Shown piece after piece: positions 3,913 to 23,549 of a stretch of 64,000 nucleotides of DNA (positions within the stretch are counted from its first letter, which is position 1; each line of letters opens with the position of its first letter). The notes beneath the pieces were generated by a model, which did no database searches, had not been told where the DNA came from, and was given only the letters and a program-made list of their open reading frames with translations. Made by a program: the position numbers and the translations under genes. The DNA lies in the sequence record OR062943.1; one strand, given 5' to 3'. This stretch comes from Escherichia phage 241Ecol014PP.

Positions 3913-3920
3913 TGCTCAGA

Positions 3921-3949
3921 TTGACTATTGTTACAAAATTTGGTAAAAT
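3921..3949 (+). promoter_or_regulatory. sigma70-like promoter
   Basis: TTGACT, 17-nt spacer, TAAAAT; upstream of GTG start at 3983. Confidence 0.5.
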
Positions 3950-3982
3950 ACCTTGTAGAGATTTTCATACCGGAGGAGTGAC

Positions 3983-5473
3983 GTGGCTAAGTATGGATTG
4001 ACAGAGGCTGGTTTCGTTATACCAACCCTAAATGACCTAATCGTTGAAACTAAGCAAAGCCTGATCCGTGCTTTTGGCGAAAACTTCAACGTACAGAGTA
4101 ACTCCGTTGCAGATAAGCTGACCACTATCTTCAACGAGCGAGAGTATCAACTTATTCTTATGGCAGCATCTGTATACGCATCACAGACGCTGTATGGGGC
4201 AGAAGGTATTTACCTAGATGAGCTTCTTGGAAGACAGGGTATTTACCGAAGAGGCCGTTCTAAATCATCAGGTACCTGCCAGTTGACAATCAACACAACT
4301 GTGCCGTACAATATGATTTATGATTCCAAAACTTATACGCTGGACAGTGGCAACTTTGTTCTTAGTAATGATGTGCAAGTAGCAGGGAATCTTATTGCTC
4401 ACAGAATAAATGCTCCAGACCTAAGGATTGGGAAATACAACTTCCAAATTACCAACCAAACAGACGGAAGTATCAAAACAAAAAGCCTGGTTTTAACAGA
4501 TAAGTCTCTGGACTCTTCTGATTTGCCAAGCTTTTACGGAGAGATTAAGCAATTCATTGTCGATAATACAACCCTGTTGAACGACGATTTGATTCAGATC
4601 GATATGTTGACAGGAACGTTGTGGATAGGGTACAATTCGAATCTTGATCAAGTTGGGCTTAACAGCAGGGTAGATTTCAGAGTATCCCCGATTGTAGGGG
4701 AAAGAACTATCACACTGGATGTTATCGCTAACGAGGCTGGTGAGCTGTCAAGAGAGGCAGAAACCGTGACAACAATGTCACCTACTCCCAGTGGATTCAT
4801 CAAGCTTACCAACCGAGAAAGATTCAATGAGGGCAGGGATGTTGAGAAAGACTCAGAGTATCGCTTAAGAGCTTCCAGCACAAAACAGTTAACATCTAAG
4901 GCTACCCGTCCTGCAATCCTTAGCGCTGTAAGCGAGGTGAAAGGTGTTGAGAAAGTGAGAGTGTTCTCCAACAACACCGATAAAACTGATGCTAAAGGTA
5001 TACCTCCTTACAAGTTCCAAGTGGTTGTGTTTGGTGGTGCAACGGAGGACATTTGCCAAGCACTTTACCAAACTATAGCCTGTACGAACAGGACTTATGG
5101 TAATATTTTCTACGATGTAACTACATCTGACGGTCAAACTGAAAGAATTTATTACTCCAAGGCAAATACCTACCGCCTAGATGTAAGAATTACCTACTCC
5201 GGTGCCGCACTTTCCACAACAGAAAAAGATGCCATTGTAGAGGCTCTTTTGCAGGTTGTTAACGGACTGGATGTTGCAGATACGTTGTATAATATCCAAT
5301 TGGTCGGTGCTGCATCTGCTGCTGTGTCAATAGGCAGATTTAATAGACTGGTAATTCAAGTTAAGCCAGTAGGAGCTTCTGATGAAGCTTACACTACAAA
5401 CGATATTGTTGCGAACATGACCGAGGTGTTTGACCTCGACGAAAGTAATATAACTTTCCAACAAACTATTTAA
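3983..5473 (+). CDS. baseplate wedge protein (Baseplate_J / gp6-like)
   Basis: 496-aa ORF, GTG start 5 nt after GGAGG; N-terminal region resembles baseplate J family as recalled; position in tail module. Confidence 0.45.
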   Translation: MAKYGLTEAGFVIPTLNDLIVETKQSLIRAFGENFNVQSNSVADKLTTIFNEREYQLILMAASVYASQTLYGAEGIYLDELLGRQGIYRRGRSKSSGTCQLTINTTVPYNMIYDSKTYTLDSGNFVLSNDVQVAGNLIAHRINAPDLRIGKYNFQITNQTDGSIKTKSLVLTDKSLDSSDLPSFYGEIKQFIVDNTTLLNDDLIQIDMLTGTLWIGYNSNLDQVGLNSRVDFRVSPIVGERTITLDVIANEAGELSREAETVTTMSPTPSGFIKLTNRERFNEGRDVEKDSEYRLRASSTKQLTSKATRPAILSAVSEVKGVEKVRVFSNNTDKTDAKGIPPYKFQVVVFGGATEDICQALYQTIACTNRTYGNIFYDVTTSDGQTERIYYSKANTYRLDVRITYSGAALSTTEKDAIVEALLQVVNGLDVADTLYNIQLVGAASAAVSIGRFNRLVIQVKPVGASDEAYTTNDIVANMTEVFDLDESNITFQQTI

Positions 5474-5484
5474 GGCGGCGAGAT

Positions 5485-6171
5485 ATGGCAGAGATTAAGT
5501 CGGATGTTAACCACATCCACACTCTGCCAGATTTTGTTCAGGGGGGTCTTGACTACCTACCTGGAGATTTTCTGGCTGAGAAGGTTAATTTAGTCACATT
5601 CTTAACCGTATACCTTAAAAGGTTGGAGGATGTTGATAAGATGCTGGTAGGTTTGGCTGAAGGAAGATTGCTTAACAATGCCAGCGGAAGATACCTTGAC
5701 GAAGTTGGTAATCAACTTGGTATTCTTAGGAATGGACTTTCAGATGCTGATTTTCGTGCCACACTAATTATTCAGCAGGCCGCAGCATCAAGGGGCGGGA
5801 CTCGCGAAGATGTCATCTCCACCTTGCGACAATTGTTCGGAAGAGACAATTTCGATACGTGGAAAGGAGACAACTTCAGGTTTGACATAAATATTAGAAA
5901 AACTTGCTTTGACATATTGCAGTCTATCGATCAGATCTTAGATATGCTACCATTGCCTTGTCATTTGCGTCTTACAGAATCGCAAGGGCAAGCTTTTGGT
6001 TTTGAAGGGGACTCTACAGCTCTGGGCTTCGGATCAGTGTGGGAAGAAAACCAATTCGGAGTTGGTGGGCTGGCTACTTTGCTGTATGTTCCTGACGTAA
6101 GACCTGATTGGGACACCACAACCATTTATTGTGAAAGTATTACAGTAAACGCAACTAGACAGGAGGGTTAA
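5485..6171 (+). CDS. baseplate/tail protein (P2 gpI-like, DUF2313-like)
   Basis: 228-aa ORF directly after baseplate J-like gene; synteny-based call, weak motif support. Confidence 0.35.
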   Translation: MAEIKSDVNHIHTLPDFVQGGLDYLPGDFLAEKVNLVTFLTVYLKRLEDVDKMLVGLAEGRLLNNASGRYLDEVGNQLGILRNGLSDADFRATLIIQQAAASRGGTREDVISTLRQLFGRDNFDTWKGDNFRFDINIRKTCFDILQSIDQILDMLPLPCHLRLTESQGQAFGFEGDSTALGFGSVWEENQFGVGGLATLLYVPDVRPDWDTTTIYCESITVNATRQEG

Positions 6172-8243
6172 TGGCAACAGCTGTTTTTAAACCTTACCGT
6201 GATTACTCTACAATGGCTGCACAGTTTCATTACCGAACAGTTCAGGATACTGCCGTTCCTGGTAGAGATTATAATCATGTTGAGGGCGATGTAACTATCC
6301 CAATTGGGGCAACCAGTATTGAGATCCCCGTGGAAATTGTTGACAAATTACCCAACAGGTTGCCAAGAAGCTTCTTTATGGAGTTTTCATCAAAATCTCA
6401 AGGGGTAATGATTGGAACACAAAGGGCGAAATGTACAATAGTTTCAGATGAGAATCTCGACAGGATATCTTGGGATACTGTTGAGGAGAGAATGTTCCAC
6501 CCAAGATATTGGGTTACAACTACTCAGCAGACTGAAAGTACCTGTATTGTTGCAGATAACAACTGTTGTATTAACCGTTTAGTGTCAAGAACATATGGAG
6601 GTATGGCTGGGTGCATTTGGGAAACAGTTGACAAGTATGACCATTTCGGCATTGGGTTTGATGATCATTATGAGATGAGAAACACCAAGCTATGGTTCAG
6701 AATGTCAATAACCAACGCCAGCAACTTCTCCACTCCTGAAAAGATGATTATGACTGTAGACCTTGTTGATGGCACAATCATCTATGTTCCTTTAGCTCAA
6801 TATGCTGTCAGCATCTCAGAGGATAAGAATGTTGCAGAAATTCATATTGATTTTGAGGACTGCGTCGGGATGGACCAGAACAACAACATGATGGGTGTTG
6901 ATCCTCGGCAGGTGAGAAGGATTTTAATACCACTTATGCCTAAAGACTGGGTAAGTAACAGCACAGACCCGAGAACGGAAAACGTAGAGTGTGAGTTGCG
7001 CCTAGATCTGCTTCAGCCAGACACAGGCTGGAAAATGATGCAACTTAATAATATCCAGGTGAAAGAACACGACGTTGGAATCTGCACAGCATATGACGAT
7101 ATGTGGAACGTATCCCCTTTAAGGGTGTTGAACAATATCAAACGTCTGGGCTATACCGGAACCATAAACCATTATGTTGGTATGAGTCATTATTATGACT
7201 ACACATGGTCAGGAACCCAATGGTCTATAAACAAAACAGGAGCGCTAAACGCTGCAGCTTATAAATGGCATGATGATTTTATGTACAATGCCAAACGACA
7301 TAACTTCGACGTTATGCAATCTGTAAGTTTTGAGCTTTTCAGTGATGCCTGCCCGTTGGAATGGACCCAAAGAGACTGGAACGATAACTACGCTAAAACA
7401 GGGTATACACCTTGTAGTTACCTCCTGTCTCCAACCATTGAAGAGGGTATGAATTTTCTTACTGCAGTATTTAAGAATTTTGCATCAGCCGCTATGAGAA
7501 ACAATCTGCCAGTGATTATGCAGGTTGGTGAACCATGGTGGTGGTACAATACCGATACTCGTAGACCTTGTATTTATGATTACCCTACAAAGCAGGCGTT
7601 TTATGATGAGACAGGTGAGTATGCATTAGATATTGGGACTATTGACGATCCTAAAACTGGCGGTGTTTACGATAAGTATGTAGCATTTTGTCGTGGTAAG
7701 CTTGGCGCTCGTATTGCAGCTATTTCAAAGGCAATAAAGGCACACGCTGCATCAGCTCAGATGACAGCTTTGCTGTTTTTCCCAACCATCATGGAAACCG
7801 AGCTTACACAAAAGCTGAACCTTGCTGACCAATATAAAAAGGAAGCAGGTGCTCTTGATTTCTTCTGTACCGAGTGCTACGATTGGGTGATGCAGGGAGG
7901 TATTGAAAAGGCAAAAGAGTCTGTAAACATACCTATCGTTAAGTTAGGCTGGCAACCGTCTGAAATACAATACCTTGCAGGGTTCGTTCCTAGTAAAGAG
8001 CTTGCTCCGGTATATGGCTACGACCCAACTAGGAATTACCAAGAATTTTTATGGAGATGTATTTGCGGAAACATGGCAACTATAGAGTATAGATACCCTG
8101 AGGTAAAACAGTATGTGTGGGCATACCCGCAAGTAATGTCTGACAGCATCACTGTTACCGCTAGAGATTCTACCGTGCTTCATATGGGGCAGGTTGCTCT
8201 GAAAGGGTATGTAGAAGATGTTGTCCCGCCAGACTTCTCATAA
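6171..8243 (+). CDS. tail-associated protein with N-terminal Calx-beta-like domain
   Basis: 690-aa ORF, start overlaps upstream stop (TAATGG); N-terminal AVPGRDY..GDVTIPIGATSIEIPVEIVD fits Calx-beta pattern; rest unassigned. Confidence 0.35.
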   Translation: MATAVFKPYRDYSTMAAQFHYRTVQDTAVPGRDYNHVEGDVTIPIGATSIEIPVEIVDKLPNRLPRSFFMEFSSKSQGVMIGTQRAKCTIVSDENLDRISWDTVEERMFHPRYWVTTTQQTESTCIVADNNCCINRLVSRTYGGMAGCIWETVDKYDHFGIGFDDHYEMRNTKLWFRMSITNASNFSTPEKMIMTVDLVDGTIIYVPLAQYAVSISEDKNVAEIHIDFEDCVGMDQNNNMMGVDPRQVRRILIPLMPKDWVSNSTDPRTENVECELRLDLLQPDTGWKMMQLNNIQVKEHDVGICTAYDDMWNVSPLRVLNNIKRLGYTGTINHYVGMSHYYDYTWSGTQWSINKTGALNAAAYKWHDDFMYNAKRHNFDVMQSVSFELFSDACPLEWTQRDWNDNYAKTGYTPCSYLLSPTIEEGMNFLTAVFKNFASAAMRNNLPVIMQVGEPWWWYNTDTRRPCIYDYPTKQAFYDETGEYALDIGTIDDPKTGGVYDKYVAFCRGKLGARIAAISKAIKAHAASAQMTALLFFPTIMETELTQKLNLADQYKKEAGALDFFCTECYDWVMQGGIEKAKESVNIPIVKLGWQPSEIQYLAGFVPSKELAPVYGYDPTRNYQEFLWRCICGNMATIEYRYPEVKQYVWAYPQVMSDSITVTARDSTVLHMGQVALKGYVEDVVPPDFS

Positions 8244-8255
8244 TCAGGAGATAAA

Positions 8256-9296
8256 ATGTCAAAACCTAGTTTTCCATTAGAGATTTGGGCAGAGGAGGAT
8301 CAGGTTCTGCCTAACACCCACAGACAGAACAGGCTACGCCCGATTGATGATTTGTGGAGAAAAGGTTGGGATCTTGGTCAAAAGCCCTCATGTGAAGAAC
8401 TTAACTATATTTTCAATATGCTCGGGACTTGGGCAAAATACATTGCTGACGAGCAGATCCCCGCTCAAGAAGGCCGTTATCTGGTACGTGATAATAACTT
8501 GAGTGATCTTTTGAACATTCCTGTTGCCCGTAGAAACCTTGGGATTATTACTAAGGAAGAGGCAGACGCCAGGTATGTAAAAGTTACAGGTGATACAATG
8601 ACAGGCCCACTGGGTTTGCAACGTATCAACTTTAAAGCTGCCGAGACAGATAAGGCTTGGATAGAGACAACTATTGGCCCAGATAAGACAACTCTCGACT
8701 TTGGGTTAAGTGATAATATTGGGTCGTTTGATGATGGTGGCACATCTACAATAGATGCGTTTCGTTGGAGATTCCAGCCAACTCAGCCGGATATTAATCC
8801 AGAGTTCACTTTGATGTACCTTAACGCGATCACGGCTAACCGTGCGCTGTTGAAAGTGGTCGGCAATGTTGAAGTTGTCGATAACATGAGGTGCAATAAC
8901 CTTACTATCAGCAATACAGCAACATTCACCAACTGTAATGTGGCTAGTCAGTTGACGGCTGGGTCAGTATATGTTAATGGTGGTGCAAGTTGTGACAGTA
9001 TGGTTGTAAGAAGCCAGCACTGTGTTGTAGGTAACAGAAATGTGGTTCGCTCTGTGAACGGAGTGACGGCTAACGGTAACGGTGATGTAACGATCACTAT
9101 CCCGCAGACGGGTGTGCAAGACATCAGAATCGGTGCAAGACTTGTGGACGGCGTTTCTGAATCTCCAATCCGCAACGGCTACGTTGTCACAGGCTGGCAT
9201 TTCGGTGACAAAAAAGAGATGCGTGGTTCAACTTACTGGGCAGGACCTTTACAAAAACTTGTAAATGGTCAATGGATCACTGTTAATTATGCATAG
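8256..9296 (+). CDS. tail fibre protein, paralogue A
   Basis: 346 aa; N-terminus PLEIWA..LPN and C-terminus QKLVNGQWITVNYA shared with ORF 10308-11354; Gly/Asn/Thr-rich beta-type centre. Confidence 0.55.
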   Translation: MSKPSFPLEIWAEEDQVLPNTHRQNRLRPIDDLWRKGWDLGQKPSCEELNYIFNMLGTWAKYIADEQIPAQEGRYLVRDNNLSDLLNIPVARRNLGIITKEEADARYVKVTGDTMTGPLGLQRINFKAAETDKAWIETTIGPDKTTLDFGLSDNIGSFDDGGTSTIDAFRWRFQPTQPDINPEFTLMYLNAITANRALLKVVGNVEVVDNMRCNNLTISNTATFTNCNVASQLTAGSVYVNGGASCDSMVVRSQHCVVGNRNVVRSVNGVTANGNGDVTITIPQTGVQDIRIGARLVDGVSESPIRNGYVVTGWHFGDKKEMRGSTYWAGPLQKLVNGQWITVNYA

Positions 9297-9310
9297 ATCG
9301 GAGGACTAGC

Positions 9311-9895
9311 ATGAAAATACTTCAAGAGTTTAAACTTTACCAACCGGGATCTGGCGAATACCACGCCAACAAGGAAACCAAAGAGCTGACCCCTCAAGAG
9401 GTCGAGGATTACACCGCATACACTGGGTATTTTTTACGTAATGATGATGGTGATTGGTATGTGCAGTCACGAACATTACGACAAGAAAATCCAGGGTGTA
9501 TCTTCCTACTTGTTGACGAGAAGGGAATTCTTAAGACATCTACAGAAGAACCTGATGCCTTATGGCCTGCTCCAGGTCTTCGTGTGGTTATCGCCAAAAA
9601 AGAAGAGGTACCAGAAAACATTATGCTTCACCACGACGATTTGCGTTTAGTTGGTGATGAATTTGTCACAGACAATGAATTCTTTGTTCAACAGGCAGAG
9701 GGTGTCATAGAGACAGAACTTGCTTGGGCTACTGCTAGAATTGGTGCCTATCAAGACATGATTGACCTTGAATATGATCTTACTGATGACCAGAAACGTA
9801 ACATCAGAGATTTGAAAATGTACAGGGTAAAACTTCTTGAAATAGATACATCTAAAGCCCCTGACATTTTCTTCCCGGAGCGACCTACCCTCTAA
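9311..9895 (+). CDS. hypothetical protein (possible tail-fibre chaperone by position)
   Basis: 194-aa ORF between the two fibre paralogues; no motif recognised. Confidence 0.35.
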   Translation: MKILQEFKLYQPGSGEYHANKETKELTPQEVEDYTAYTGYFLRNDDGDWYVQSRTLRQENPGCIFLLVDEKGILKTSTEEPDALWPAPGLRVVIAKKEEVPENIMLHHDDLRLVGDEFVTDNEFFVQQAEGVIETELAWATARIGAYQDMIDLEYDLTDDQKRNIRDLKMYRVKLLEIDTSKAPDIFFPERPTL

Positions 9896-9906
9896 GAGGA
9901 GGTGTT

Positions 9907-10221
9907 GTGGAGTTGGATTTGGCGGCATTGTACGGTATCTGCATGGGTACCGTTGTCCCGATCTGTGTATGGGCTTTCAACCAGTGGCACACCAAATGGA
10001 AAGGCATTTCCAAGAGGTTGGAAGAGCTGGAGAAAGACCTCATCTTAGTGAAAAACAGTATGGTTACAAAAGATAAACTTGATTCCGTTATAGAGACCCG
10101 GTTAAGCAAGCTAGAGGCCGATATTAACGACCTTAAGCAGGATGTCAGGACAGATGTCTCCGGCATCAGAGCCGATGTACAAAAGATTTTGCACATGCTC
10201 GTAGAGCATAGTAAAAGGTAA
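9907..10221 (+). CDS. membrane-anchored coiled-coil protein
   Basis: GTG start after GGAGG; one N-terminal hydrophobic helix then heptad-like LEELEKDL..LSKLEADINDLKQD. Confidence 0.35.
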   Translation: MELDLAALYGICMGTVVPICVWAFNQWHTKWKGISKRLEELEKDLILVKNSMVTKDKLDSVIETRLSKLEADINDLKQDVRTDVSGIRADVQKILHMLVEHSKR

Positions 10222-10230
10222 ACAAAGGTC

Positions 10231-10263
10231 AGAACGGAAAGGACTCCGTTCTTGCATTTTGTT
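10231..10263 (+). terminator. rho-independent terminator
   Basis: hairpin AGAACGGA-AAGGAC-TCCGTTCT then TGCATTTTGTT. Confidence 0.5.
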
Positions 10264-10307
10264 CCCTAAAGTGTTAAAATAGTCCTAAGGAATTTTCTCA
10301 GGAGAAC

Positions 10308-11354
10308 GTGATGACTAAACCAGTTATCCCTCTTGATATTTGGGCCAATCAGGATGTTGTGCTTGAAAATACGGGAGAGTTGAATAAGTCTCAACCAAAA
10401 AAAGAAGAGAGATTGAAAGGTTGGGATATGACACAAAGAGTGGCATGTGAAGTTGTTAACTTTGAACTTCACATGCTTTCTGCGTGGTTAAAGCATTTAA
10501 CAGAAGATGTTGTCCCAGGATGGGATAATAGATTCTTAAGGGTCACTAATAATCTAGCAGACGTTCCAGACAAAGCTGCTGCACGTCAAGTTCTCAATGT
10601 ATACTCGCCTGAAGAAATGGACGATCTGTATGTTGACAAGTCTGGAGACATAATGACTCAGACTCAAACTTTAGGCCTTCAAAGAATCGAGTTTGCATCT
10701 GCGTCAACAGACAATGCGGCAATATATACCACCATAACTCCAGACAAGACGACGATGGACTTCTGGATTATGGACAACATCGGTGGTGCTGACGGCACAG
10801 ACCTTGATGATCCTTCTCACCAAATAGACGGGTTCCGTTGGAGATTTCAACCTTCTGGTGGGCAGCCTGTGTTTTCGGCTATGAAGCTCAATGCTATAAC
10901 TGCCAACCGTGCAAGACTGGCTATCCAAGGAAATCTTGAATGCAACGATGCAAAAAGTTCCTCTGCAAATGCCAATGCGGTCACGATACCAAGAGCCACT
11001 GTTAACGGACAACAATCCTGCGGAAGCGCTCAAATAGGTGGAAGAGTTGATTGTAACGATGAAACCGTTAGAGGCCAATATGCAACCGTTGGTGGAAGAA
11101 ACGTGGTCCGCAGGGTAAACGGTAACAGCGCAGACGGTAGTGGTAACCTTACTGTCCCTATGCCCAGTAGAGGGGTTGACGATGTAAGGATAGCGAACCG
11201 TTTCAAAACCACCTACAGAGAGTCAAGAGTCTACCCTGGACATGTGATGTGCTCTGGTAACTACGCTTATAAACACCCTTATCAAGGTGATTACTGGACA
11301 GGTGCTATCCAAAAACTTGTAAACGGTCAATGGATCACTATATCTTATGCTTAA
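10308..11354 (+). CDS. tail fibre protein, paralogue B
   Basis: 348 aa; likely ATG at 10311 after AGGAGAA; homologous end-to-end with 8256-9296, identical C-terminal QKLVNGQWIT motif. Confidence 0.55.
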   Translation: MMTKPVIPLDIWANQDVVLENTGELNKSQPKKEERLKGWDMTQRVACEVVNFELHMLSAWLKHLTEDVVPGWDNRFLRVTNNLADVPDKAAARQVLNVYSPEEMDDLYVDKSGDIMTQTQTLGLQRIEFASASTDNAAIYTTITPDKTTMDFWIMDNIGGADGTDLDDPSHQIDGFRWRFQPSGGQPVFSAMKLNAITANRARLAIQGNLECNDAKSSSANANAVTIPRATVNGQQSCGSAQIGGRVDCNDETVRGQYATVGGRNVVRRVNGNSADGSGNLTVPMPSRGVDDVRIANRFKTTYRESRVYPGHVMCSGNYAYKHPYQGDYWTGAIQKLVNGQWITISYA

Positions 11355-11365
11355 AAAGAGGGTAA

Positions 11366-11632
11366 ATGAAACTAACTCAGTTTTTATGGGGACTGGTTGC
11401 GGCATCTGATGACCCTACGAAAGTATCCCAATCTAAGCTATGGTCGAACATAGGCATGGCGGTGATGACTGGGGTGTTTATTCATATGGGGTATAATGAT
11501 ACGCTTCCTGAATGGTATGCGTGGATATATGCACCTTCAGTAGCCTGCCCCCAGCTTATTAGCAAATTCATCTCGCTCCGGTGGGGTTGCCAGCACCCTG
11601 ACCACGTTAAAAACGAAGAGCAAAAAGCTTAA
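11366..11632 (+). CDS. small membrane protein
   Basis: 88 aa with two hydrophobic segments; RBS GAGGG present. Confidence 0.35.
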   Translation: MKLTQFLWGLVAASDDPTKVSQSKLWSNIGMAVMTGVFIHMGYNDTLPEWYAWIYAPSVACPQLISKFISLRWGCQHPDHVKNEEQKA

Positions 11633-11641
11633 GGAGAAATC

Positions 11642-13387
11642 ATGGCGCAAGACATGACAAGCTTCGAGCAGGCGGTAGATCAAGTAATTGTTGATTCTGA
11701 ACGTTTGCACTTGATTGTCAACGGTAACGCTGTGGATGAAGTTGTCGTAGAGGATGGGACCACTATCCCTACGGTACGAAAAGCCATGCTTGACACCCTT
11801 TATTTTAAAACGCCACCAATCCCTTGGGCGTATGGTGCATCCACAACAGTTTTTAACCAGTTGTATGAGTTTAAAGGGGATACAGGCACTCAGTGGTGGT
11901 ACGCCCCAGCAGCATCAAAATCTAACCCGGTTAGAATGCCAGCAGATCCTTCACAATCTCCAAACTGGAGATTATACACCGACTCTGCAGTAATGGCAAA
12001 ATACTACGCAAAACTTAACAGCCCAAGGTTCGAAGGTGACCCGCGAGTACCTACACCTCCAATGGACGATAAGTCAGAGTCCATAGCAAACACAGAGTTT
12101 GTTGTTGACTATGTTGATAGCATATTTAAAGCCATGGAGGGGATGAAAGTTACTGTAGGATCTTTGGTGGTAAAAGGTCTTACAGAACTCGCTAACACTA
12201 TAGTTGGTGGCACCCTTACCTTACATGGACCTGTTAATGGGGCAGATTCTACTGCACGCTTTAGGAATCTAATCCTCACGGCAAATACTTCTACACTTAC
12301 TTTTGCGTGGAGCGATCCTAAGCATGCAGACTGGAGAAGTACAGAGCTGCAACCTCATGAAGTGTCCACCCACAGGGTTATAGCTGACACTATAACTTCT
12401 GGGAAACCAGTGGCTAATAATAACGATGTGCATTTTGATGGTCTGGGTAATAACTTTTTTGACTACGTGTACATTCGTGGTAATGCCATGAAGGCAGCAA
12501 CCGAGCCGACATTGCAGGTCGATGGGACCGCCAGGGTTAAGAACCTTGAGGTGACAGGCACCGTTACAGGGATAACATACTCTGTCGATGGCACCATGAT
12601 CTACCCTAGCTATATTGAAAGCACGGGTGATGCATTGATAAATGGCGATTTGGAGGTTGGCGGATCTGTAGTTATTCGAGGTACAGCCTCTATCCAAAAC
12701 ATAGCTCTGAATACCCTAAGAGTCAATGAGCGTGCAACTTTTGAAGGGGAAGGACTTACAGCCAACAAAGGTGTAATTACCGAGCTGACAACCACTACTT
12801 TAACTGCAACAACTGCAAACTCTGAAAACTGCAACGTTACCAGAAACTTGCAGGTAAATGGAGATGTTAGTTTAAACGCAGCAGGGACGGGCACCACCTA
12901 CCTTCACAACCTTGAAATATCCGGCACAGTGACTGGGTGGCTGCCAGACTTCTCTAATGTCAACTTTGTTTGTAATGGCATTAACTCCAGTGGCAAGATA
13001 ACCACCTCTCAAGAAATTGAGGCGGGTAAAACCATTACTGCCCCTACTTTCCACGCAGGAAAGGTAGATTTTGATTTAGAGGAGGTTGACGCGTCCAGTG
13101 GGACATGGACACCTAACGGGCAGGCCAGTATGTATGTTGTCCACGCGAAAGGGGATTTTACAATAGGACAATGGCCTGGGACATCAGCGGAAGATAAACC
13201 TTATCCATTCACTGCAGTTATCTATGTCATTCAGGATGCTGTAGGTCACAACGTGACTTTGCACGATAAGTATGCTATCCTGTCGGCAACACCTGTTATT
13301 AACAACAAGGCTAACAGTGTTACCTTGCTGCAATTAACGTATTGTGGTGTTGGTGATATTGTAGACGTAGTAATTGCACAACGTTAA
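11642..13387 (+). CDS. tail fibre / tail spike-like protein
   Basis: 581 aa, Thr/Gly/Asn-rich beta-helix-like repeats (LTATTANSEN.., GTGTTYLHNLEISGTVTG). Confidence 0.45.
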   Translation: MAQDMTSFEQAVDQVIVDSERLHLIVNGNAVDEVVVEDGTTIPTVRKAMLDTLYFKTPPIPWAYGASTTVFNQLYEFKGDTGTQWWYAPAASKSNPVRMPADPSQSPNWRLYTDSAVMAKYYAKLNSPRFEGDPRVPTPPMDDKSESIANTEFVVDYVDSIFKAMEGMKVTVGSLVVKGLTELANTIVGGTLTLHGPVNGADSTARFRNLILTANTSTLTFAWSDPKHADWRSTELQPHEVSTHRVIADTITSGKPVANNNDVHFDGLGNNFFDYVYIRGNAMKAATEPTLQVDGTARVKNLEVTGTVTGITYSVDGTMIYPSYIESTGDALINGDLEVGGSVVIRGTASIQNIALNTLRVNERATFEGEGLTANKGVITELTTTTLTATTANSENCNVTRNLQVNGDVSLNAAGTGTTYLHNLEISGTVTGWLPDFSNVNFVCNGINSSGKITTSQEIEAGKTITAPTFHAGKVDFDLEEVDASSGTWTPNGQASMYVVHAKGDFTIGQWPGTSAEDKPYPFTAVIYVIQDAVGHNVTLHDKYAILSATPVINNKANSVTLLQLTYCGVGDIVDVVIAQR

Positions 13388-13435: not shown

Positions 13436-16400
13436 ATGCTTCCAATCCCTTTGCTAAAACTTGGTCGTCATTTCCTCGATAAGAGGGGTGGAATTAAGGA
13501 ACTTGCTGTTCTGTCATACCCAATAGACAACAGTGATGGTACAAGCAACACAGTATCCTATGTAAATAGCTTAGCTATACTTTTTGATGATGGTCAGCTT
13601 AATATTACTGGCTATAATAGGTTCGGAGAGTGTCGGACTGGAGATCTTGATACAATAAACTATCCTAATGAGGCTGCCTGGAACGTTGATCATGTGTGGA
13701 GAGCAGACCGTGCGTTTGTGATCCGAACTTTTGATAACCAGTTTTTCTACATCGGCTGCACTGCAGGGCTTATTGGGTCTGATGCTGCAGGCGGTAATGA
13801 TGTTTGTGTAAGAGAGTGGACACCTCTTCCTGAACAGATCGTTAAAGGGTTGCACCTTGACACCCACCCAGAGCGCCTTATTGAGGTGATGGGTGGTATT
13901 AACAACACTGTCTGGGTTATTGCAGAGGCAGAAGGCACTGGCATACTTAACCTGTATGGATCTGGTAACAACACCTACGGATCTTTGCATGTAGATAAAA
14001 ACCAGCATGCAACCCCTGTAAAGATTGGTGAGACATCGGAAAATCCTGAAACAGGCCCTTGGAAAAACCCAAGCATCAACTGTGAGGTGCATGACAACTC
14101 TGTTATTTTCGGTGGTCCTAGGGGTTTCTGGATTGCTGGATACGACTTTCTAAGAAATAACAGTAGAAACGACCTTGTTTGGCCTCCTGTGCAGATTACT
14201 CGTAACGATTTGAGAGGCATTCCTGCAGATGAGGAGTGGAAAGGGTTTATGTGCGGTCCTAACGGGGCAATAATTGCCACACAGAGGATGCACACACCTA
14301 ATGACCAGCAGCTTGTTAACGTATTCTACGGGCAAGACGTTTGGGGAGATGACACATGGCGTTCCTTAAATATCACCTACACCCATGAGGTGATAATGGC
14401 TCGTGGATACGGCACAAGTGGCATTTTCTTCAATAATGGCACTAAACAGTATCGTGGATTCTCTCGCAACTTGTGTAATGATATTGGTGCACAATCTGCA
14501 AACAATAGCCCTAGGGCTAATTTTATCCACTATCAGGCTCTTGCTACAGCTAAATATGTTGAGCAACGCCTGCCAGTTAGCTGGACAGAGAGTGTTTATT
14601 TCCAAGGCATCCACAGGGAAGGTTTCTTAGGAACCTTTACTGTTGTTAATGGCAAACTTTGGTGGTCAGGCATCCCAAGGGGAAGTTTTGCAGGCTCTAA
14701 CAACCTGTTTGGCGGCAGACTTAATAGCCAGGGGTTCACAGAGGTTCCTGAGAATTGGTATAAAAATGTCCCGGTAGATAGTTGGGGTGTTGATGATATT
14801 TTCGACGTTAACGGTGTTAGCAGCGTTAGCAATATTTACATTGGTGACACGGTCAAGATGAAATTGAAGCCTCAGCCAGAGGGGGCTACGTTCATTATTG
14901 ACAAGATTGAACTGGTAAATGCTGCAGGCACGGTTGTTACAGATGCAAATTACCAATTCTCCACCAACTGGAACCACGGCGGGGCCAACGAAGTTGTTGT
15001 TACCCAATATAACAGAAATGTTAACAGACGTGGACTGTACTCTGTAAAAATAACCTATCATGACAAACATGGCACAGGCAGAACCCACACAACAAGGACT
15101 TTGAACTGGAACACTATCGTCCCAGCGTACCCGTCTGATGGTAAATGGCATACTGTCGGTAGAAACAAACAGTTCCATGTTAATGATACTGTATACTTTG
15201 GGCTGAATGCGGCTCAGCCTGCAGTAGAAGGGGATACATCGTATATGGTCAGACTCCACAGAATGGATGCTGGATCAGTAACTTATGATGTTACCCAAGA
15301 GATTTATAATCAGCGACGAAATACCTATGATAACTTGGTGCAGACACAGGCCTTATGGGAGTTCAACCCAAACGGCAGAGGTGGTAAAATGTTGCAGGTC
15401 AATGAACAAAACGGGACATCGTTGACTGTCCATGAACATCCAAATCCTTGGCCTGATCCTGGAAAACCTAACTCTGGTGCTCGTACACTGAAAATTGTTA
15501 GCCATGATGCAGGATATTTCGGAATACGCTGGGAAGCCACAGTAAGATATGCCGACGGGACAACAAACAATATAGGGATCACCCTTGGTGGCACTAGTGA
15601 GGATAACTCACTGAAAATTGCCTACACCCCTAGAGGCATCTCTATTGACAATATGGATGTTGTTCGCAACGGTTACGGCGATGTGAATGTCAAAGTTACT
15701 CTTGGCGAACATCTTGGTGGGGAAAGGATCATCATGTATGCCTTTGATCATGATCCGCGCACCAATGGGACTTATGCAAATCAGGCATGGAGTTATCTGA
15801 TAAATGCACCTGAGCCGAATACTAAAGAGTTCTACTACGGTATGAAGCGAGATGTGTGCAAGAAAACAGGAACACATGACTGGATTGCTATCTGCGTTAA
15901 AGATGAGCGCACAGCTTGGGATGAGCCTGTTAACAGATGGTTCATAGGTATTCCTACCAGAAGTGATAAGTATGTCGCAGAATATATTGTATGCATGGGC
16001 GGTACCAACCTAAACATGTGTTGGAACGAAGATGTAAACAAATACTCTGATTATGACTATATGAGGGATTACTCTTGTAATTTGTGGTTTAACCAAACTA
16101 CAGGTTACCCTCCGCGTCAGGCAAGGGTAAATCCTGCAATCTTTACAGATACGCAGGTTTTCTTGACAAAACAGGCCAACGAGGTCCAGACCTTCAAGAA
16201 CAAATACGACCCTAATAAGTGGTTCTATAACTGCTATGGGGCATTTTTCTGGGGACCTGGAGAATTACCTGGTGGTGGCTCTTGTTTTGAGGCTGCAACT
16301 TACGCCAGTGACAGATTTATGGGCCAGGTCAAGAAATACAAGATAATTCCAGGGCCTGAAACTTTAGGCAACGCTGTCGACCCCTATATCATCATGAGTG

Positions 16401-19072
16401 ATCTAAGATCGAACATGGATGGAACATCCATATCTATGCAAGTTCCGGTAACAAACGGATACAAGCGTGTTGTGATGATCATTAAGTGCGATCTGATAGG
16501 TAAGCAAGTTCTTGCAGAGAACGGAACTTCCACCCACCTATTTGAGACTGCTCTGCACTATCAGTTTGCTGATTCACCTTTTGCAGGGGATAAGAGAATA
16601 TCTGACACAGACGCTGTGCGATGCAAGAAATTTATGCTAGGTGGTGGGTGGTGGTGGTATGAATTTGACTTAACAGACAAATTCACCGACACGTCTAAAG
16701 TAGTGACGGGGCTTCGTCTAGACCTTGGCGAAAACATGCACAAAAGTGTTTGTGATGGCACCTACGGTGACCCAACAATCTACTTAAAGTATGTCTCTTT
16801 TGAGCACCCAGAGGATGTTGTTTATGGTCCAAAACTGAGACTGTTTGGCAATTGGATTGCTAAAGACAGGGTAGGTATGGGCAAGAAGGTAAGAGGCTTC
16901 TTAATGGATGCCGGTACAGAGGACATGCTAGTCAATGCAGTGTGGCCTGAATTACCTGGGACTCAGTGGAACAACTCAGCCAAATCTATAAACTGGTTCA
17001 ATATCCACAGGGCTATGTGGACAACCAACTGTTACCTGTGGAAAGAGCTGAATGACGGCGCTTTCGGGTTCACAGGCGGCAGAAGAATGGCAATCATTTG
17101 CTGGACAACGTTGCAAAGATGTTATGACCATGACTACGAGATTGGAGGTAGGGCATGGAAAAATATTAGGGATAGAATCATAACCAACTTTGCAGATCCT
17201 AACGGTGGTGGAGCGTATGGCTTCGACTGCAGCAGGCTCATCCATTTGAACGGATCCTCTGCCTACAAGAAAGAAGGTTACTCTGGGTCTATGATAGAAT
17301 GGGGCCTGGTGAAAGATGCTCGCGTGCTGATGGGTCAACAACTTGCTGCTGCAATAGGTCCTAATGCAGTGCAATCTGTTAAACCTGCGTGGTTTGATAT
17401 CCCATTGTGGTCATCCGGTACACCAGGAACTGCTGCAATCAACCCTACCACGGGGGATCTGGAAATCTCTTGGGAGGACTTGAAGCAGGTTGGAGGCTGG
17501 GATAAAACAGGGTATCAGGTCCAGTGGTGGAGGGCTGATGGATCTTTAGCCGCTGATGAGTTTGTTAAGGACAATTTCTACACCATGTCCTCTGCAAAAG
17601 CACAGCAATTATTTGGTCAGGCCACTCCGTCAACGATCACCATGTCTATGTGCTGTAAAGACAACAGGACTGGAGCTTTGGGGCCAAGGGTTGCTAAGGT
17701 TTTCTCAGGTATTAAATGGAATCTCCCTGTTCAAAGTGTTTCATGGAAGCAAATAGGTGATAACAAGCTGCTGGTTACCCCTGCCTGTCAGTTCAACGCA
17801 ACTCTTAACGTTGATCCTGCTGTTGCGGCAAACTCAGCTAAAGCTTCTGACTTCTCTGTGTCTAACACTGCTATGGCAGATGTGAGGAAGATTGACACAC
17901 TGAACGCCAGAATTACCTGTAAAAACACTTATGGCACATTCCAAATCATCAACAACTTCACAGATGCTGATTCTAAGGTAGTAAGGACAGCAAGCCAGAC
18001 TCTGAGTTTAGGGACTCTAGCCTATGCGGCCATGATCACCGAACAGTCGGCAACACTCCAAGGAGGCGGTGTAGGCAAGTCCATTGCAACACCTGTGTGG
18101 AAGCCGAATGAGTGGGTTGTGTTTGATTTGACTGTGGACTTCTCCAGTGATAATAACTGGACATGGGTAAGGAATTGTTTGTCACAGTTGATGGGCGGTC
18201 CAAGCTCCATTAGCGATAGTCACGACTCTACTGACCCGAGCGTGTTCCAGGTGGGTAAAACTCACCCAGAGACTGGAGAAACGTTGCCTGACAGGAAGTA
18301 TGCTTTGGTTTGCATCTCTTACGGGAAGGCAGATGTCACCTTCTCAGGGACACACACTTATAACGGAACCTACAACTTCTCAAGGAAGTATAGTCTCAAA
18401 GCAGGGAACATTGTAGACGAGGTTGGTGTGCTGTATAATCCAGGTAACGGCATAGGGATTGTGGGTGGTAAACTGCAGATGCAGGAACCTTCTATTACCC
18501 CTTCCAACGTATCCGGTATTAGAAAGACTTGGGAAAGTAGTAATACCAACATTGCAACAGTGGATGCTGCCACAGGGCTGGTAACATTTAAAGCTACTGG
18601 GAATGTCACCATAAAGTTTGTAGTTACTGATGATGCAGGGCGCAAAACGTCTTCAACATCTTTTACTGTCAAACAGATGGCACCACAGTGGAGAATGTGG
18701 ATAGGTACAGCAACAAACGGGGCATACCCTAATCCGGCAGGTACTTCTGGTATGAAGACTTTCTCTACAAGCAAACCGATGGAGTACGGCAGCGGTCCTA
18801 AGGTAGGGCAGATGGTGTACTTTGGTGCGTATATTCCTGAAATTATAGGGCTTCCTAGAAGTCAGCTTCAGTTGCTGTTTGGGGCTGGTGTTGACGATCT
18901 TGCCACTTTCGGGTATAGCGACAACATCGAGGCTGCAAGGAGTTCAGGATGGGTAGGGTTCAGAATGGAGTCTGGAAAGGAAGGCAGGATTCTAGGGACA
19001 GCCTCTATAGGTGTTATGTTCCCTGGTGACCAGCAGTATCGTCTAGAAGCCTACGCAACCTTTTCTCGTTAA
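13436..19072 (+). CDS. giant virion-associated adhesin-like protein with Big_2 Ig-like domain
   Basis: 1878-aa ORF; near C-terminus ITPSNVSGIRKTW..TGLVTFKATGNVTIKFVVTDDAGRKTSSTSFTVKQ fits bacterial Ig-like group 2 pattern. Confidence 0.5.
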   Translation: MLPIPLLKLGRHFLDKRGGIKELAVLSYPIDNSDGTSNTVSYVNSLAILFDDGQLNITGYNRFGECRTGDLDTINYPNEAAWNVDHVWRADRAFVIRTFDNQFFYIGCTAGLIGSDAAGGNDVCVREWTPLPEQIVKGLHLDTHPERLIEVMGGINNTVWVIAEAEGTGILNLYGSGNNTYGSLHVDKNQHATPVKIGETSENPETGPWKNPSINCEVHDNSVIFGGPRGFWIAGYDFLRNNSRNDLVWPPVQITRNDLRGIPADEEWKGFMCGPNGAIIATQRMHTPNDQQLVNVFYGQDVWGDDTWRSLNITYTHEVIMARGYGTSGIFFNNGTKQYRGFSRNLCNDIGAQSANNSPRANFIHYQALATAKYVEQRLPVSWTESVYFQGIHREGFLGTFTVVNGKLWWSGIPRGSFAGSNNLFGGRLNSQGFTEVPENWYKNVPVDSWGVDDIFDVNGVSSVSNIYIGDTVKMKLKPQPEGATFIIDKIELVNAAGTVVTDANYQFSTNWNHGGANEVVVTQYNRNVNRRGLYSVKITYHDKHGTGRTHTTRTLNWNTIVPAYPSDGKWHTVGRNKQFHVNDTVYFGLNAAQPAVEGDTSYMVRLHRMDAGSVTYDVTQEIYNQRRNTYDNLVQTQALWEFNPNGRGGKMLQVNEQNGTSLTVHEHPNPWPDPGKPNSGARTLKIVSHDAGYFGIRWEATVRYADGTTNNIGITLGGTSEDNSLKIAYTPRGISIDNMDVVRNGYGDVNVKVTLGEHLGGERIIMYAFDHDPRTNGTYANQAWSYLINAPEPNTKEFYYGMKRDVCKKTGTHDWIAICVKDERTAWDEPVNRWFIGIPTRSDKYVAEYIVCMGGTNLNMCWNEDVNKYSDYDYMRDYSCNLWFNQTTGYPPRQARVNPAIFTDTQVFLTKQANEVQTFKNKYDPNKWFYNCYGAFFWGPGELPGGGSCFEAATYASDRFMGQVKKYKIIPGPETLGNAVDPYIIMSDLRSNMDGTSISMQVPVTNGYKRVVMIIKCDLIGKQVLAENGTSTHLFETALHYQFADSPFAGDKRISDTDAVRCKKFMLGGGWWWYEFDLTDKFTDTSKVVTGLRLDLGENMHKSVCDGTYGDPTIYLKYVSFEHPEDVVYGPKLRLFGNWIAKDRVGMGKKVRGFLMDAGTEDMLVNAVWPELPGTQWNNSAKSINWFNIHRAMWTTNCYLWKELNDGAFGFTGGRRMAIICWTTLQRCYDHDYEIGGRAWKNIRDRIITNFADPNGGGAYGFDCSRLIHLNGSSAYKKEGYSGSMIEWGLVKDARVLMGQQLAAAIGPNAVQSVKPAWFDIPLWSSGTPGTAAINPTTGDLEISWEDLKQVGGWDKTGYQVQWWRADGSLAADEFVKDNFYTMSSAKAQQLFGQATPSTITMSMCCKDNRTGALGPRVAKVFSGIKWNLPVQSVSWKQIGDNKLLVTPACQFNATLNVDPAVAANSAKASDFSVSNTAMADVRKIDTLNARITCKNTYGTFQIINNFTDADSKVVRTASQTLSLGTLAYAAMITEQSATLQGGGVGKSIATPVWKPNEWVVFDLTVDFSSDNNWTWVRNCLSQLMGGPSSISDSHDSTDPSVFQVGKTHPETGETLPDRKYALVCISYGKADVTFSGTHTYNGTYNFSRKYSLKAGNIVDEVGVLYNPGNGIGIVGGKLQMQEPSITPSNVSGIRKTWESSNTNIATVDAATGLVTFKATGNVTIKFVVTDDAGRKTSSTSFTVKQMAPQWRMWIGTATNGAYPNPAGTSGMKTFSTSKPMEYGSGPKVGQMVYFGAYIPEIIGLPRSQLQLLFGAGVDDLATFGYSDNIEAARSSGWVGFRMESGKEGRILGTASIGVMFPGDQQYRLEAYATFSR

Positions 19073-19083
19073 CAAGGGGGTAA

Positions 19084-19116
19084 ATAAAAAAGGGGCCGTT
19101 TGGCCCCTTTCTTTTT
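19084..19116. terminator. bidirectional rho-independent terminator
   Basis: AAAAAA-AGGGGCC-GTTT-GGCCCCT-TTCTTTTT between convergent genes ending at 19072 (+) and 19121 (-). Confidence 0.75.
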
Positions 19117-19120
19117 ATAG

Positions 19121-19321
19121 TTAGTAATACTCCCAACATGCCCCATCTTCAGACGGCTTGACGCGCTTACCTTTATGGTCAACATAGGTATAGCCACAAC
19201 CTTCACAAATAACAGGTGCTGCATAGCCTTCCTTCCACTGATCCTCAGTGATCAGACCTTCCAAATCTTTGCAGTCAAAGCCAAACAACTCTTCAGAACA
19301 GTCTTTACAAAAATCAGCCAT
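19121..19321 (-). CDS. small Cys-rich putative zinc-binding protein
   Basis: 66 aa with CxxC...CxxC pairs. Confidence 0.4.
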   Translation of the reverse strand: MADFCKDCSEELFGFDCKDLEGLITEDQWKEGYAAPVICEGCGYTYVDHKGKRVKPSEDGACWEYY

Positions 19322-19390
19322 CTCTATCAGTCTCCATATTTAACCAATCTATATTACATATTGCCGAAGAAACAGTATTTCATTTCATCA

Positions 19391-19609
19391 TCACAGATCT
19401 CCAACAACTTCCCAAATACCCCAGTGAGCATCTATATCCTTGATAAAGTATCTTTCTCCACGGTTTGTCCACACACCTATCCCAACTTTACCATCTATCC
19501 CATTGTATACATCTGCCTCATACTCTTTGCCCGGTGTAAAGTGTACACCCATCATAAGGGCTGTTATTCCATTAGGATTTTTAAATTTAACAAATTTTAC
19601 TTTGCTCAT
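19391..19609 (-). CDS. hypothetical protein
   Basis: 72-aa ORF in co-directional minus-strand block. Confidence 0.4.
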   Translation of the reverse strand: MSKVKFVKFKNPNGITALMMGVHFTPGKEYEADVYNGIDGKVGIGVWTNRGERYFIKDIDAHWGIWEVVGDL

Positions 19610-19610
19610 A

Positions 19611-19940
19611 TTACTTAATCCTTGCAGTTACAGTAGCGCTATACCCCATGTAGTTATGAGACATAAAGAATGTAAGCCCTTTAAGTTCAGGATTCTTTCT
19701 AAGAAATCGTTTCAATTTTCGAATGCAATTAACACCATGATCATAGTTTGAGAAATTAAATTTAATACCCTGCTCCATCATAGTGCACACTTCTTCATGG
19801 GTATGCCATTGTCTATCGTGGTCACAAAACCAGTAACCAATACCTTCTTTTTCTTGGATATGCAATCCCCAAAATACTTTATGCATTGGATATTTTGGTT
19901 TTCTACCATGATAATGTAGTTTAATATTCACATGTGCCAT
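19611..19940 (-). CDS. hypothetical protein
   Basis: 109-aa ORF, stop-start coupled with downstream gene. Confidence 0.4.
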   Translation of the reverse strand: MAHVNIKLHYHGRKPKYPMHKVFWGLHIQEKEGIGYWFCDHDRQWHTHEEVCTMMEQGIKFNFSNYDHGVNCIRKLKRFLRKNPELKGLTFFMSHNYMGYSATVTARIK

Positions 19941-20111
19941 TTTTTTTTGTTACTCCGTTCTGTATCTGTGATAATGAGAATAGCAAACTGGGGTGTGTGC
20001 TGTCAACAACATTTTTAAGCGTTTTGGGGAAGTTTTTTGAAAGGTGGGTGTAATCACAAGAGAGGGTGGAGTTATTGAAGGCACAGGCCTCTTTTGAGGC
20101 CTTAAAATCGA

Positions 20112-20492: not shown

Positions 20493-20522
20493 TTAATCAG
20501 TCTCCATCTAGAAAGTAATACT

Positions 20523-20693: not shown

Positions 20694-20698
20694 GGCTC

Positions 20699-21441: not shown

Positions 21442-21498
21442 GTCAGTCTCTCCTGTTGTATTGTTGGTAGGTGTATGAATACCTTATAACTCACCTTT

Positions 21499-22065: not shown

Positions 22066-22067
22066 GA

Positions 22068-22759: not shown

Positions 22760-22775
22760 GGCTCTCTCCTTTTTG

Positions 22776-23009: not shown

Positions 23010-23010
23010 A

Positions 23011-23534: not shown

Positions 23535-23549
23535 AAATAACGTCCTCTC

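Follow-up and report, generated by a model that had tools for sequence, protein, structure and literature searches.

Organization of the short tail fibre locus

The window analysed here is a 64,000-nt stretch of Escherichia phage 241Ecol014PP (OR062943.1), and the locus under study spans positions 8256–11354. A 4-kb query of the locus matched 111 full-length records at 98–99% identity (megablast), and the window is 98–99% identical to Vequintavirus phages such as rV5 and the BASEL phage Bas58, whose gene tables correspond to it ORF for ORF (synteny of rV5 gp36–gp27). Given this near-identity, we assign the two fibre ORFs of the locus to rV5 gp33 and gp30, paralogous short tail fibres of the Mu type.

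The pair is real but ordinary, and it is already known and published. Kropinski (2013) reported 42.3% identity between gp33 and gp30 of rV5, proposed that they recognize two LPS chemotypes, and detected both proteins together with the chaperone gp32 in rV5 virions by mass spectrometry (PMC3606486), so that both copies are expressed and virion-associated; a sequence-only reading of this DNA had named the lack of either as what would refute its proposal. Maffei (2021) likewise described two paralogous short tail fibres and a chaperone in the BASEL Vequintavirus phages, homologous to GpS and GpU of phage Mu and annotated as two copies of ‘short tail fiber protein’ plus a ‘tail fiber chaperone’ (PMC8594841). 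What we add to this published picture is the domain-resolved divergence of the two fibres, the loss of an RPIDDLW motif in gp30, the replacement of another gene in the slot that gp30 occupies, a hairpin and promoter-like motif upstream of it, and an exchange of tips in a metagenomic relative.

The first fibre gene (8256–9296, + strand, 346 aa) encodes the gp33 orthologue and shares 99% identity with rV5 gp33 and with Bas58_0035, a ‘short tail fiber protein’ (PHROG 4465 tail fibre, E = 9e-172). It lies in the ancestral position and has the ancestral type of N-terminus, including RPIDDLW. The second (10311–11354, + strand, 347 aa) encodes the gp30 orthologue, is 98.6–100% identical to gp30 of rV5, ime and Bas58 (PHROG 4465, E = 5e-166), and has a derived N-terminal domain and tip. 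The sequence-only reading had opened this ORF at a GTG at 10308; the start is the ATG at 10311, since rV5 has GCG at 10308 and all records annotate the ATG.

The two small genes that the same reading placed between the fibres are indeed there. The one directly 3’ of gp33 (9311–9895, + strand, 194 aa; rV5 gp32) is the only tail fibre assembly (Tfa) gene in the locus. Its product matches Caudo_TAP (PF02413) over residues 121–192 (E = 7.5e-12) and PHROG 136; a phmmer search of the PDB gave nothing meaningful, so the Tfa assignment rests on Pfam and PHROG. The product of the next gene (9907–10221, + strand; rV5 gp31) is 104 aa long, has a hydrophobic helix at its N-terminus and then a coiled coil, and matches PHROG 5345, a family of unknown function (E = 6e-48). 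Its gene is kept beside Tfa in all related genera, with homologues in Av-05, Seunavirus and the relatives L044, L046 and L047. No Tfa gene follows gp30, which has in that place an 88-aa membrane protein (11366–11632, + strand; rV5 gp29; PHROG 1322 ‘membrane protein’, E = 3e-32). All related genera have its gene after the fibre module (homologues in Av-05, L044, L046 and L047).

Upstream of the fibres, the baseplate gene of rV5 gp35 type (5485–6171, + strand) encodes a protein matching the phiTE ‘Wedge 1 protein’ (9mjn, E = 6e-67) and Phi92_gp146 (E = 3e-23). The N-terminus of the phiTE short tail fibre binds wedge 1, with residues 3–92 forming the wedge joint (PMC11972413). By analogy, the fibre N-terminus in the window probably docks onto gp35.

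We also identified, in the intergenic segment ahead of gp30 (10231–10281, + strand), a terminator-like match consisting of a hairpin (10231–10252) followed by TTGCATTTT, and a late-promoter-like motif, TGTTAAAATA, at 10272–10281. The general form of the motif, TGKTAAAATA, occurs four times on the + strand against 0.5 expected and resembles the late-gene motif TggTAaAAtA of rV5 (PMC3606486). The layout of hairpin and motif recurs in FV3, L048 and L044, with compensatory changes in the stem. The hairpin may act as a terminator and TGTTAAAATA as a late promoter.

Divergence between the paralogues

That the two ORFs are paralogous tail-fibre genes is borne out by an end-to-end BLASTP alignment with 44% identity and 59% positives (E = 1e-96), far beyond chance. 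The sequence-only reading had described them as conserved at the ends and divergent in the centre; sliding identity showed instead that the best-conserved block is central (residues ~120–205, 60–70% identity) and that low identity is concentrated at residues ~50–100, ~210–250 and ~295–330. Conservation at the ends is limited to the first ~12 residues and to the last ~14, which are near-identical and include the C-terminal QKLVNGQWIT..YA segment noted earlier. The supposed shared N-terminal attachment region holds for its PL(E/D)IWA motif but otherwise fails, as the N-terminal 110 residues are among the most diverged (38% identity) and gp30 lacks RPIDDLW, with QPKKEER in its place. Every other homologue compared, including the phiTE fibre, has RPIDDLW. 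The tips (residues 286–346) are 45% identical in the lineage of the window. We therefore mapped the paralogues into an N-terminal joint (1–110), a conserved shaft (111–205), a variable shaft (206–285) and a tip (286–346).

Third-codon-position identity between the two genes is about 0.3 along their length, a sign of an old duplication. Only the last ten shared codons depart from this, with 29 of 30 nucleotides identical; a direct-repeat search of the locus found direct repeats at the 3’ ends of the fibre genes only. Because synonymous sites are saturated at this level of third-position identity, dN/dS between the paralogues is uninformative, and comparisons within orthologues were used instead.

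Searches of PDB sequences linked both ends of the fibres to solved structures. Residues 1–108 of gp33, with RPIDDLW present, match the phiTE short tail fibre (9cuy, E = 1e-19), as does the family profile (E = 1e-36); the match of gp30 (residues 1–83, E = 2e-8) is much weaker than that of gp33. At the opposite end, residues 286–343 of gp33 match Mu GpS (5yvq, E = 1.7e-6, phmmer), and the profile, built from 23 sequences, matches it over positions 283–350 (E = 4.5e-13). In the PDB sequence search gp30 alone had no significant GpS match, and its membership of the GpS type follows from its alignment to gp33 and from its place as one of the 23 profile sequences. The AlphaFold2 monomer of gp33 predicted from the 23-sequence alignment was poor (pLDDT 60.4, pTM 0.31), so the domain boundaries are drawn from sequence; the one usable result of the model was its top Foldseek match, 5yvq_A (E = 2.8e-7). 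Kropinski (2013) had reported HHpred similarity of gp30 and gp33 to the T4 gp12 structure 1PDI (PMC3606486). This match was not reproduced in PDB searches with gp33, gp30 or the profile, which returned no gp12 chain at E ≤ 1.

Selection, distribution and origin of the pair

Both fibre genes are intact in all six Vequintavirus genomes examined. The dN/dS analysis that the sequence-only reading had suggested gave values of 0.02–0.08 across both genes when run within orthologues (0.04–0.08 for gp30), consistent with strong purifying selection on each. Variable residues across the six genomes number 10 and 19 in the two fibre genes, and none of these genomes has a chimeric gp33/gp30 allele. Maffei (2021) similarly noted ‘no considerable allelic variation’ (PMC8594841). 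The gp30 tip is also well conserved between the window and L048.

By tblastn, about 115 records, all of them Vequintavirus-like, had two loci each; these hold both genes at ≥95% identity (one gp30 copy at 90–95%). Av-05, Seunavirus, Mydovirus and the phi92-like phages have a single fibre copy, and the sister genera have in the gp30 slot a gene for a membrane protein of 133–157 aa alongside their one fibre. A scan of IMG/VR with the family alignment yielded few useful loci, most of its matches being to a short collar-repeat motif (residues ~90–125).

Trees built region by region unite the six rV5-like fibres (99% bootstrap), with 100% bootstrap for the gp33-type clade and for the gp30-type clade within them. 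An initial neighbour-joining tree with fewer taxa and a phi92-like root had placed gp30 on a long branch and given the monophyly of gp33 and gp30 33% support; with L044 and L048 included, the long branch was divided and this support rose to 99%. These trees place the duplication within the rV5-like lineages compared, presumably on their stem. Rather than lying in tandem with the first, the second copy occupies what is another gene's slot, preceded by a hairpin and promoter-like motif of its own. Of the earlier proposal of duplication followed by receptor-binding divergence, the paralogy and the divergent tips stand.

The metagenomic relative L044 departs from this pattern. Here the two paralogues have tips with 84% identity, and a within-genome grouping of the tips has 98% bootstrap, compared with 0% for the rest of the protein. 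As judged from these alignments and trees, this shows a past exchange of tips between the paralogues in L044. The exchange is old, as the synonymous sites of the shared tip have diverged since. In the lineage of the window, exchange would have involved at most a short 3’ tract. Since both L044 fibres carry the same tip, that lineage cannot gain dual receptor specificity through the tip, and two copies may have been kept for another reason, such as geometry, attachment site or dosage.

Two fibres and one chaperone

Phages of the rV5 type are among the commonest E. coli phage isolates and go into cocktails for therapy and biocontrol. If it were known which LPS-core structure each fibre binds, host range could be predicted and engineered more readily. 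We consider it probable that the rV5-type pair of Vequintavirus short tail fibres in the locus specialised after duplication, with both copies kept. The fibres would be trimers of the Mu GpS/P2 gpH kind, with the N-terminal domain seated in the baseplate wedge, a shaft, and a C-terminal tip binding the LPS core. The gp30 gene arose by duplication of a gp33-type gene, presumably on the stem of the rV5-like lineages, and the copy took up a position two genes further downstream, replacing the gene for a small polytopic membrane protein. Purifying selection has since preserved both copies, while specialisation proceeded at two places: the baseplate-joint region of gp30, remodelled with the loss of RPIDDLW, and, in the rV5 branch, its tip as well.

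Folding of both fibres most likely depends on the one Tfa, gp32. Such a shared chaperone would explain why their last ~14 residues are near-identical and why the end residues co-vary genome by genome. Across lineages the N-terminal half of Tfa is more variable than the C-terminal half, and in the two-fibre lineages it carries an insertion that five of the six aligned single-fibre relatives lack (L047 has part of it). This insertion may be related to the folding of two fibres.

Both fibres are most likely carried on the virion and would bind two LPS-core variants or positions at irreversible adsorption, each with its own presumed specificity and docking site. The different tips of gp33 and gp30 fit two receptor specificities, an idea published in 2013. 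In the BASEL work LPS Glc-I was identified as the terminal receptor, and all Vequintavirinae tested on E. coli K-12 had the same waaG/waaC dependence (PMC8594841), so that a second specificity was not seen there. We found no functional dissection of gp30 versus gp33 (knock-outs or host-range mutants) in the literature searched; a paper on phage HP3 concerns a T4-like phage and is irrelevant to these genes. The puzzle is how two paralogous fibres share a baseplate when the only solved relatives, phiTE and phi92, have one such fibre and six sites per baseplate, one per wedge. The domain map and the naturally tip-swapped L044 provide concrete designs for testing which core types are bound.

The N-terminal evidence bears on two other ways of placing gp30 on the baseplate. 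It is possible, if not the reading we favour, that gp30 forms a second, structurally distinct set of baseplate fibres docking at a site other than that of gp33. The virion would then carry 12 short fibres, arranged as two rings or alternating; the tip could either match that of gp33 (as in L044) or differ from it (as in rV5), and the duplication would serve attachment geometry or triggering rather than receptor range. We are more doubtful that the paralogues compete for the same six wedge-1 sites to give each virion a mixed, stochastic fibre set, a form of bet-hedging, instead of two fixed sets. Such competition would agree with the one docking site per wedge of the solved relatives, with the first ~12 residues common to both fibres (P..PL.IWA) and with the single wedge-1 gene, whose product is 225–230 aa long both in the two-fibre lineages and in the single-fibre Av-05, L046 and L047. 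The gp30-type N-terminus is, however, distinct (55% identity between the window and L044 but 38% to gp33, 100% bootstrap) and lacks the RPIDDLW motif of every single-copy fibre compared, so that a changed docking mode fits better than competition for identical sites.

The tips and shafts speak to the remaining alternatives. The sequence-only reading had offered the pair as a recombination substrate for host-range switching, and the past exchange in L044 lends this idea some substance, but we see no sign that switching is ongoing. A recombination cassette in which repeated gene conversion of the tips changes host range seems improbable to us. The last ten shared codons of the window fall inside 63 nt that are 83% identical (only three of the ten are shared in L044), and the L044 tips do cluster as such conversion predicts. 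Yet that exchange is old, the tips of the rV5 and L048 branches are distinct and each conserved, and nucleotide identity elsewhere (35–60%) is too low for efficient homologous recombination. The scarcity of allelic variation described above, with no chimeras among the six genomes and both genes at ≥95% identity in nearly all of the ~115 records, also argues against it. Also set aside was an invertible cassette like the Mu G or P1 C segment: neither gene is truncated and the two share a strand, and the rV5 and Bas58 annotations list no recombinase in the ~12 kb on each side of the locus. Heterotrimers of gp33 and gp30, which would make one kind of fibre from two products, could draw on the shared central block, the GRNVVR.VNG and QKLVNGQWIT segments and the single chaperone. 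We judge them very unlikely because shaft indels of 2, 4 and about 6 residues would break the register; moreover, the N-terminal domains share no more than 38% identity, and the known fibres of Mu and P2 type (e.g., 5yvq and phiTE) are homotrimers.

Comparison with known fibre systems

The specialised pair that we favour has its closest counterpart in the published rV5/BASEL pair, which has the same genes at 98–100% identity, in the same order and with the same neighbours, and does not differ from the window in any essential respect. The short tail fibre of T4, gp12, has an analogous role as a baseplate fibre that binds the LPS core for irreversible adsorption, and the resemblance is functional. 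In T4, gp57A takes the part of the Tfa, and a single short-fibre gene, with tip variants among its alleles, stands where the rV5-type phages have two paralogues.

Homology is found with phiTE (9CUY/9MJN) and with fibre III of phi92 (gp147), whose N-terminal ~85–108 residues and wedge-1 partner are related to those of the rV5-type fibres. Their fibres are six downward-pointing trimers on the wedge, encoded by a single gene compared with two here. In phiTE, a long coiled coil and Ig-like domains take the place of the short shaft of the rV5-type fibre.

The tip has its counterpart in phage Mu. By profile, the C-terminal ~65 residues of the rV5-type fibres match GpS (gp49), solved with GpU (TfaMu) in PDB 5YVQ, although the N-terminal and shaft parts are not alignable by sequence. 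Gene order is also alike in Mu/P2 and rV5, running from a J-like wedge protein (gp36) through wedge-1 (gp35) and the fibre (gp33) to Tfa (gp32), and in both Mu and rV5 the Tfa stays in the virion. The difference is in how a second tip is supplied: Mu inverts DNA at one locus between the tips S/U and S’/U’, whereas the rV5-type phages have two complete fibre genes, both expressed, and one Tfa.

The short tail fibre pair of the rV5-like locus

Judged by its sequence, the window comes from a Vequintavirus, a myovirus of the rV5 type. A search with 4 kb around the fibre locus gives 111 phage records that match across 80% or more of the query. The top match is 95–99% identical in nearly all of the 116 matching records, rV5 and the BASEL phage HeinrichReichert/Bas58 among them. 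About 20 'Campylobacter phage' records (GenBank MG0656xx, host C. jejuni) match positions 8000–12000 and are 98–99% identical to E. coli Vequintavirus phages at the fibre locus; their host label looks doubtful.

The locus codes on the plus strand for the orthologues of rV5 gp33 (short tail fibre 1, 8256–9296) and gp30 (short tail fibre 2, 10311–11354), both annotated 'short tail fiber protein' in BASEL records. The sequence-only reading had started the second fibre at a GTG, but the true start is the ATG at 10311; rV5 has GCG in place of that GTG. The fibre genes are separated by gp32, a tail-fibre assembly protein of the Caudo_TAP family (Tfa; 9311–9895), and gp31 (104 aa; 9907–10221), whose hydrophobic N-terminal helix is followed by a coiled coil. 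The 88-aa membrane protein gp29 (11366–11632) directly follows gp30. Kropinski et al. (2013) had already described gp30 and gp33 as alike in size and 42.3% identical and suggested that they recognise two LPS chemotypes, and Maffei et al. (PMC8594841) described both paralogues and their chaperone as homologues of Mu GpS/GpU. The fibre pair is therefore a rediscovery: the observation is real and the feature already published, though the sequence-only reading described it in partly wrong terms. gp33, gp30 and Tfa have been found in rV5 virions (PMC3606486), which shows both fibre copies to be virion-associated.

In gp34 (6171–8243), upstream of gp33, a Calx-beta domain occurs together with the N-terminal and TIM-barrel domains known from N4 gp65, the 'non-contractile tail sheath protein'. 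This is the protein recently tied to N4 glycan receptor (NGR) binding in Vequintavirus. It lies between wedge-1 and fibre in Vequintavirus, Av-05 and the single-fibre contig L047 and is not found there in Seunavirus or phi92-like phages. Farther downstream, negative GC skew (~18000–26000) coincides with the rV5 block of small minus-strand genes after the 1878-aa Ig-like fibre gene (13436–19072); bidirectional terminators are annotated at this junction in rV5.

Divergence of the paralogues

The two proteins align over their full length (44% identity, BLASTP E = 1e-96), which from the alignment puts the claimed paralogy beyond doubt. The accompanying description of conserved ends and a divergent centre was contradicted by sliding windows and domain-wise identities: the best-conserved block is the centre (residues ~120–205; 60% overall, locally up to 70%). 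Identity is only 38% over the N-terminal 110 residues, 36% over residues 206–285 and 45% over the tip (286–346), and striking likeness at the ends is limited to the first dozen and last ~14 residues (QKLVNGQWIT..YA). Identity at third codon positions is ~0.3 throughout, indicating an old duplication, except in the last ten shared codons (29 of 30 nt identical, within a 63-nt stretch of 83% identity). Both genes are intact in six genomes, where dN/dS is 0.02–0.06 for gp33 and 0.04–0.08 for gp30; both are under purifying selection.

Distribution and origin of the duplication

Among the records compared, two fibre copies occur only in Vequintavirus-like genomes; Avunavirus, Seunavirus, Mydovirus and phi92-like phages have one. 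Gene order in the sister genera is fibre, Tfa, a 104-aa protein, a polytopic membrane protein of 133–157 aa, an 88-aa membrane protein and the next fibre. The gp30 gene of rV5-like phages occupies precisely the position of the polytopic protein (6949–7422, 6961–7434 and 6919–7320 in the loci L003, L005 and L006, respectively) and is thus not a simple tandem duplicate. Throughout the Vequintavirinae the tail-fibre cluster includes small membrane proteins (104-aa, with a transmembrane segment and coiled coil; 133–157-aa polytopic; 88-aa), an odd place for lysis or exclusion genes; rV5-like phages lack the polytopic one.

Protein searches and contig look-ups added two undescribed rV5-like two-fibre lineages. 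In L048–L051 (Logan ERR6997038, SRR27327045 and ERR4623478; ENA ERZ16268152), gp33 and gp30 are 87 and 78% identical to the window, and proteins across gp35–gp28 78–90%; NCBI lists this lineage's gp30 as 'hypothetical protein [Escherichia coli]'. The second, L044 (ENA ERZ15185469 NODE_327), is far more divergent: its gp33-type (STF1) and gp30-type (STF2) fibres are 73 and 45% identical to the window. The duplication had been unresolved in an initial tree built from fewer taxa. With L044 and L048 added, the six rV5-like fibres group into a single clade (99% bootstrap), divided into gp33-type and gp30-type clades (100% each). The duplication is thus older than the divergence of the three two-fibre lineages and probably took place in their common stem.

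A putative late promoter upstream of gp30

On the plus strand at 10231–10281, a hairpin, TTGCATTTT and TGTTAAAATA stand in that order, the last ~30 nt before the gp30 ATG. Corresponding layouts occur in the two-fibre loci L041 (~3920–3970), L048 (~4915–4970) and L044 (~2110–2165); FV3 and two divergent lineages retain the arrangement, and the stem differences between lineages are compensatory. The motif reads TG(T/C)TAAAATA upstream of the second fibre gene across the loci compared. TGKTAAAATA has four copies in the window (3941, 10272, 36518 and 60238), all on the plus strand, with 0.5 expected by shuffling; the copy at 3941 lies 42 nt before a baseplate wedge gene (3983). The motif is similar to the late-gene motif of rV5, TggTAaAAtA (PMC3606486), and to the T4 late promoter TATAAATA. 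The region has the look of a late promoter preceded by a terminator or processing site, in which case gp30 would be transcribed as a separate unit.

Docking, chaperone sharing and function

Residues 1–108 of gp33 match the short tail fibre of Pectobacterium phage phiTE (PDB 9CUY/9MJN; E = 1e-19) and residues 286–343 match the Mu tail fibre GpS (5YVQ). A family profile strengthened both matches (E = 1e-36 and 4.5e-13), and 5YVQ was the sole significant fold match of a low-confidence monomer model. gp35, upstream of the fibre, is homologous to phiTE 'wedge 1' (E = 6e-67) and to a phi92 wedge protein. In the phiTE structure, the joint to wedge 1 is made by fibre residues 3–92 (PMC11972413). The motif RPIDDLW is present in gp33 and every single-copy homologue compared, phiTE included (one residue differs in the Mydo homologue), and is missing from gp30. 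The gp30 N-terminal domain forms a conserved lineage of its own: the window and L044 versions are 55% identical, whereas identity to gp33 is just 38%. We propose that gp33 retains the ancestral docking to wedge-1 and that the docking mode of gp30 has changed. The homologous phi92 fibre III (gp147) is present on the wedge as six trimers that point downward (PMC13450770); that both paralogues occupy one set of six sites in a mixture seems rather unlikely to us. Heterotrimers are also unlikely, given the shaft indels between gp33 and gp30.

In TfaMu, a variable N-terminal domain binds the fibre tip and a conserved C-terminal domain drives trimerisation (PMC9608196). The Tfa proteins of the three two-fibre lineages carry a 12–17-residue insertion (GSGEYHANKETKELTPQEVEDYT region) in the N-terminal half, by homology the fibre-binding domain. 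The insertion is missing in five of the six single-fibre relatives aligned (Avunavirus, two Seunavirus, Mydovirus and phi92-like) and partly present in L047. The extreme C-termini of the paired fibres co-vary within genomes (NYA/SYA in rV5 and L048, QTL/QTL in L044), and gp32 probably folds both fibres via their common C-terminal strands.

In the rV5 branch, the differing tips probably bind differing LPS-core structures. The window and L048 have well-conserved gp30-type tips. The L044 STF2 tip is 84% identical to its own STF1 tip and only 37% to that of the window's gp30. The L044 tips cluster together at 98% bootstrap, compared to 0% for every other region, and this incongruence shows a past tip exchange between the paralogues in that lineage; it is old, given the later divergence at synonymous sites. 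With a single kind of tip on both L044 fibres, dual receptor specificity cannot be the sole reason for two fibres, and the second may have a role in geometry or attachment site. The one old exchange and the short 3' tract support a reading of the pair as a recombination cassette for host-range switching. Yet both tips are stable across ~115 genomes, in line with a report of no considerable allelic variation in these paralogues (Maffei et al.; PMC8594841), and we consider such a cassette very improbable. The sequence-only interpretation is partly supported: the two genes are paralogous fibres, both kept by purifying selection, and the stability of the tips speaks against a host-range cassette.

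The locus contains two fibre genes of the Mu GpS type and a single Tfa gene. From the fibre, wedge-1 and Tfa homologies, the rV5-type locus shares the gene order of Mu and P2: J-like wedge, wedge-1, fibre and Tfa.
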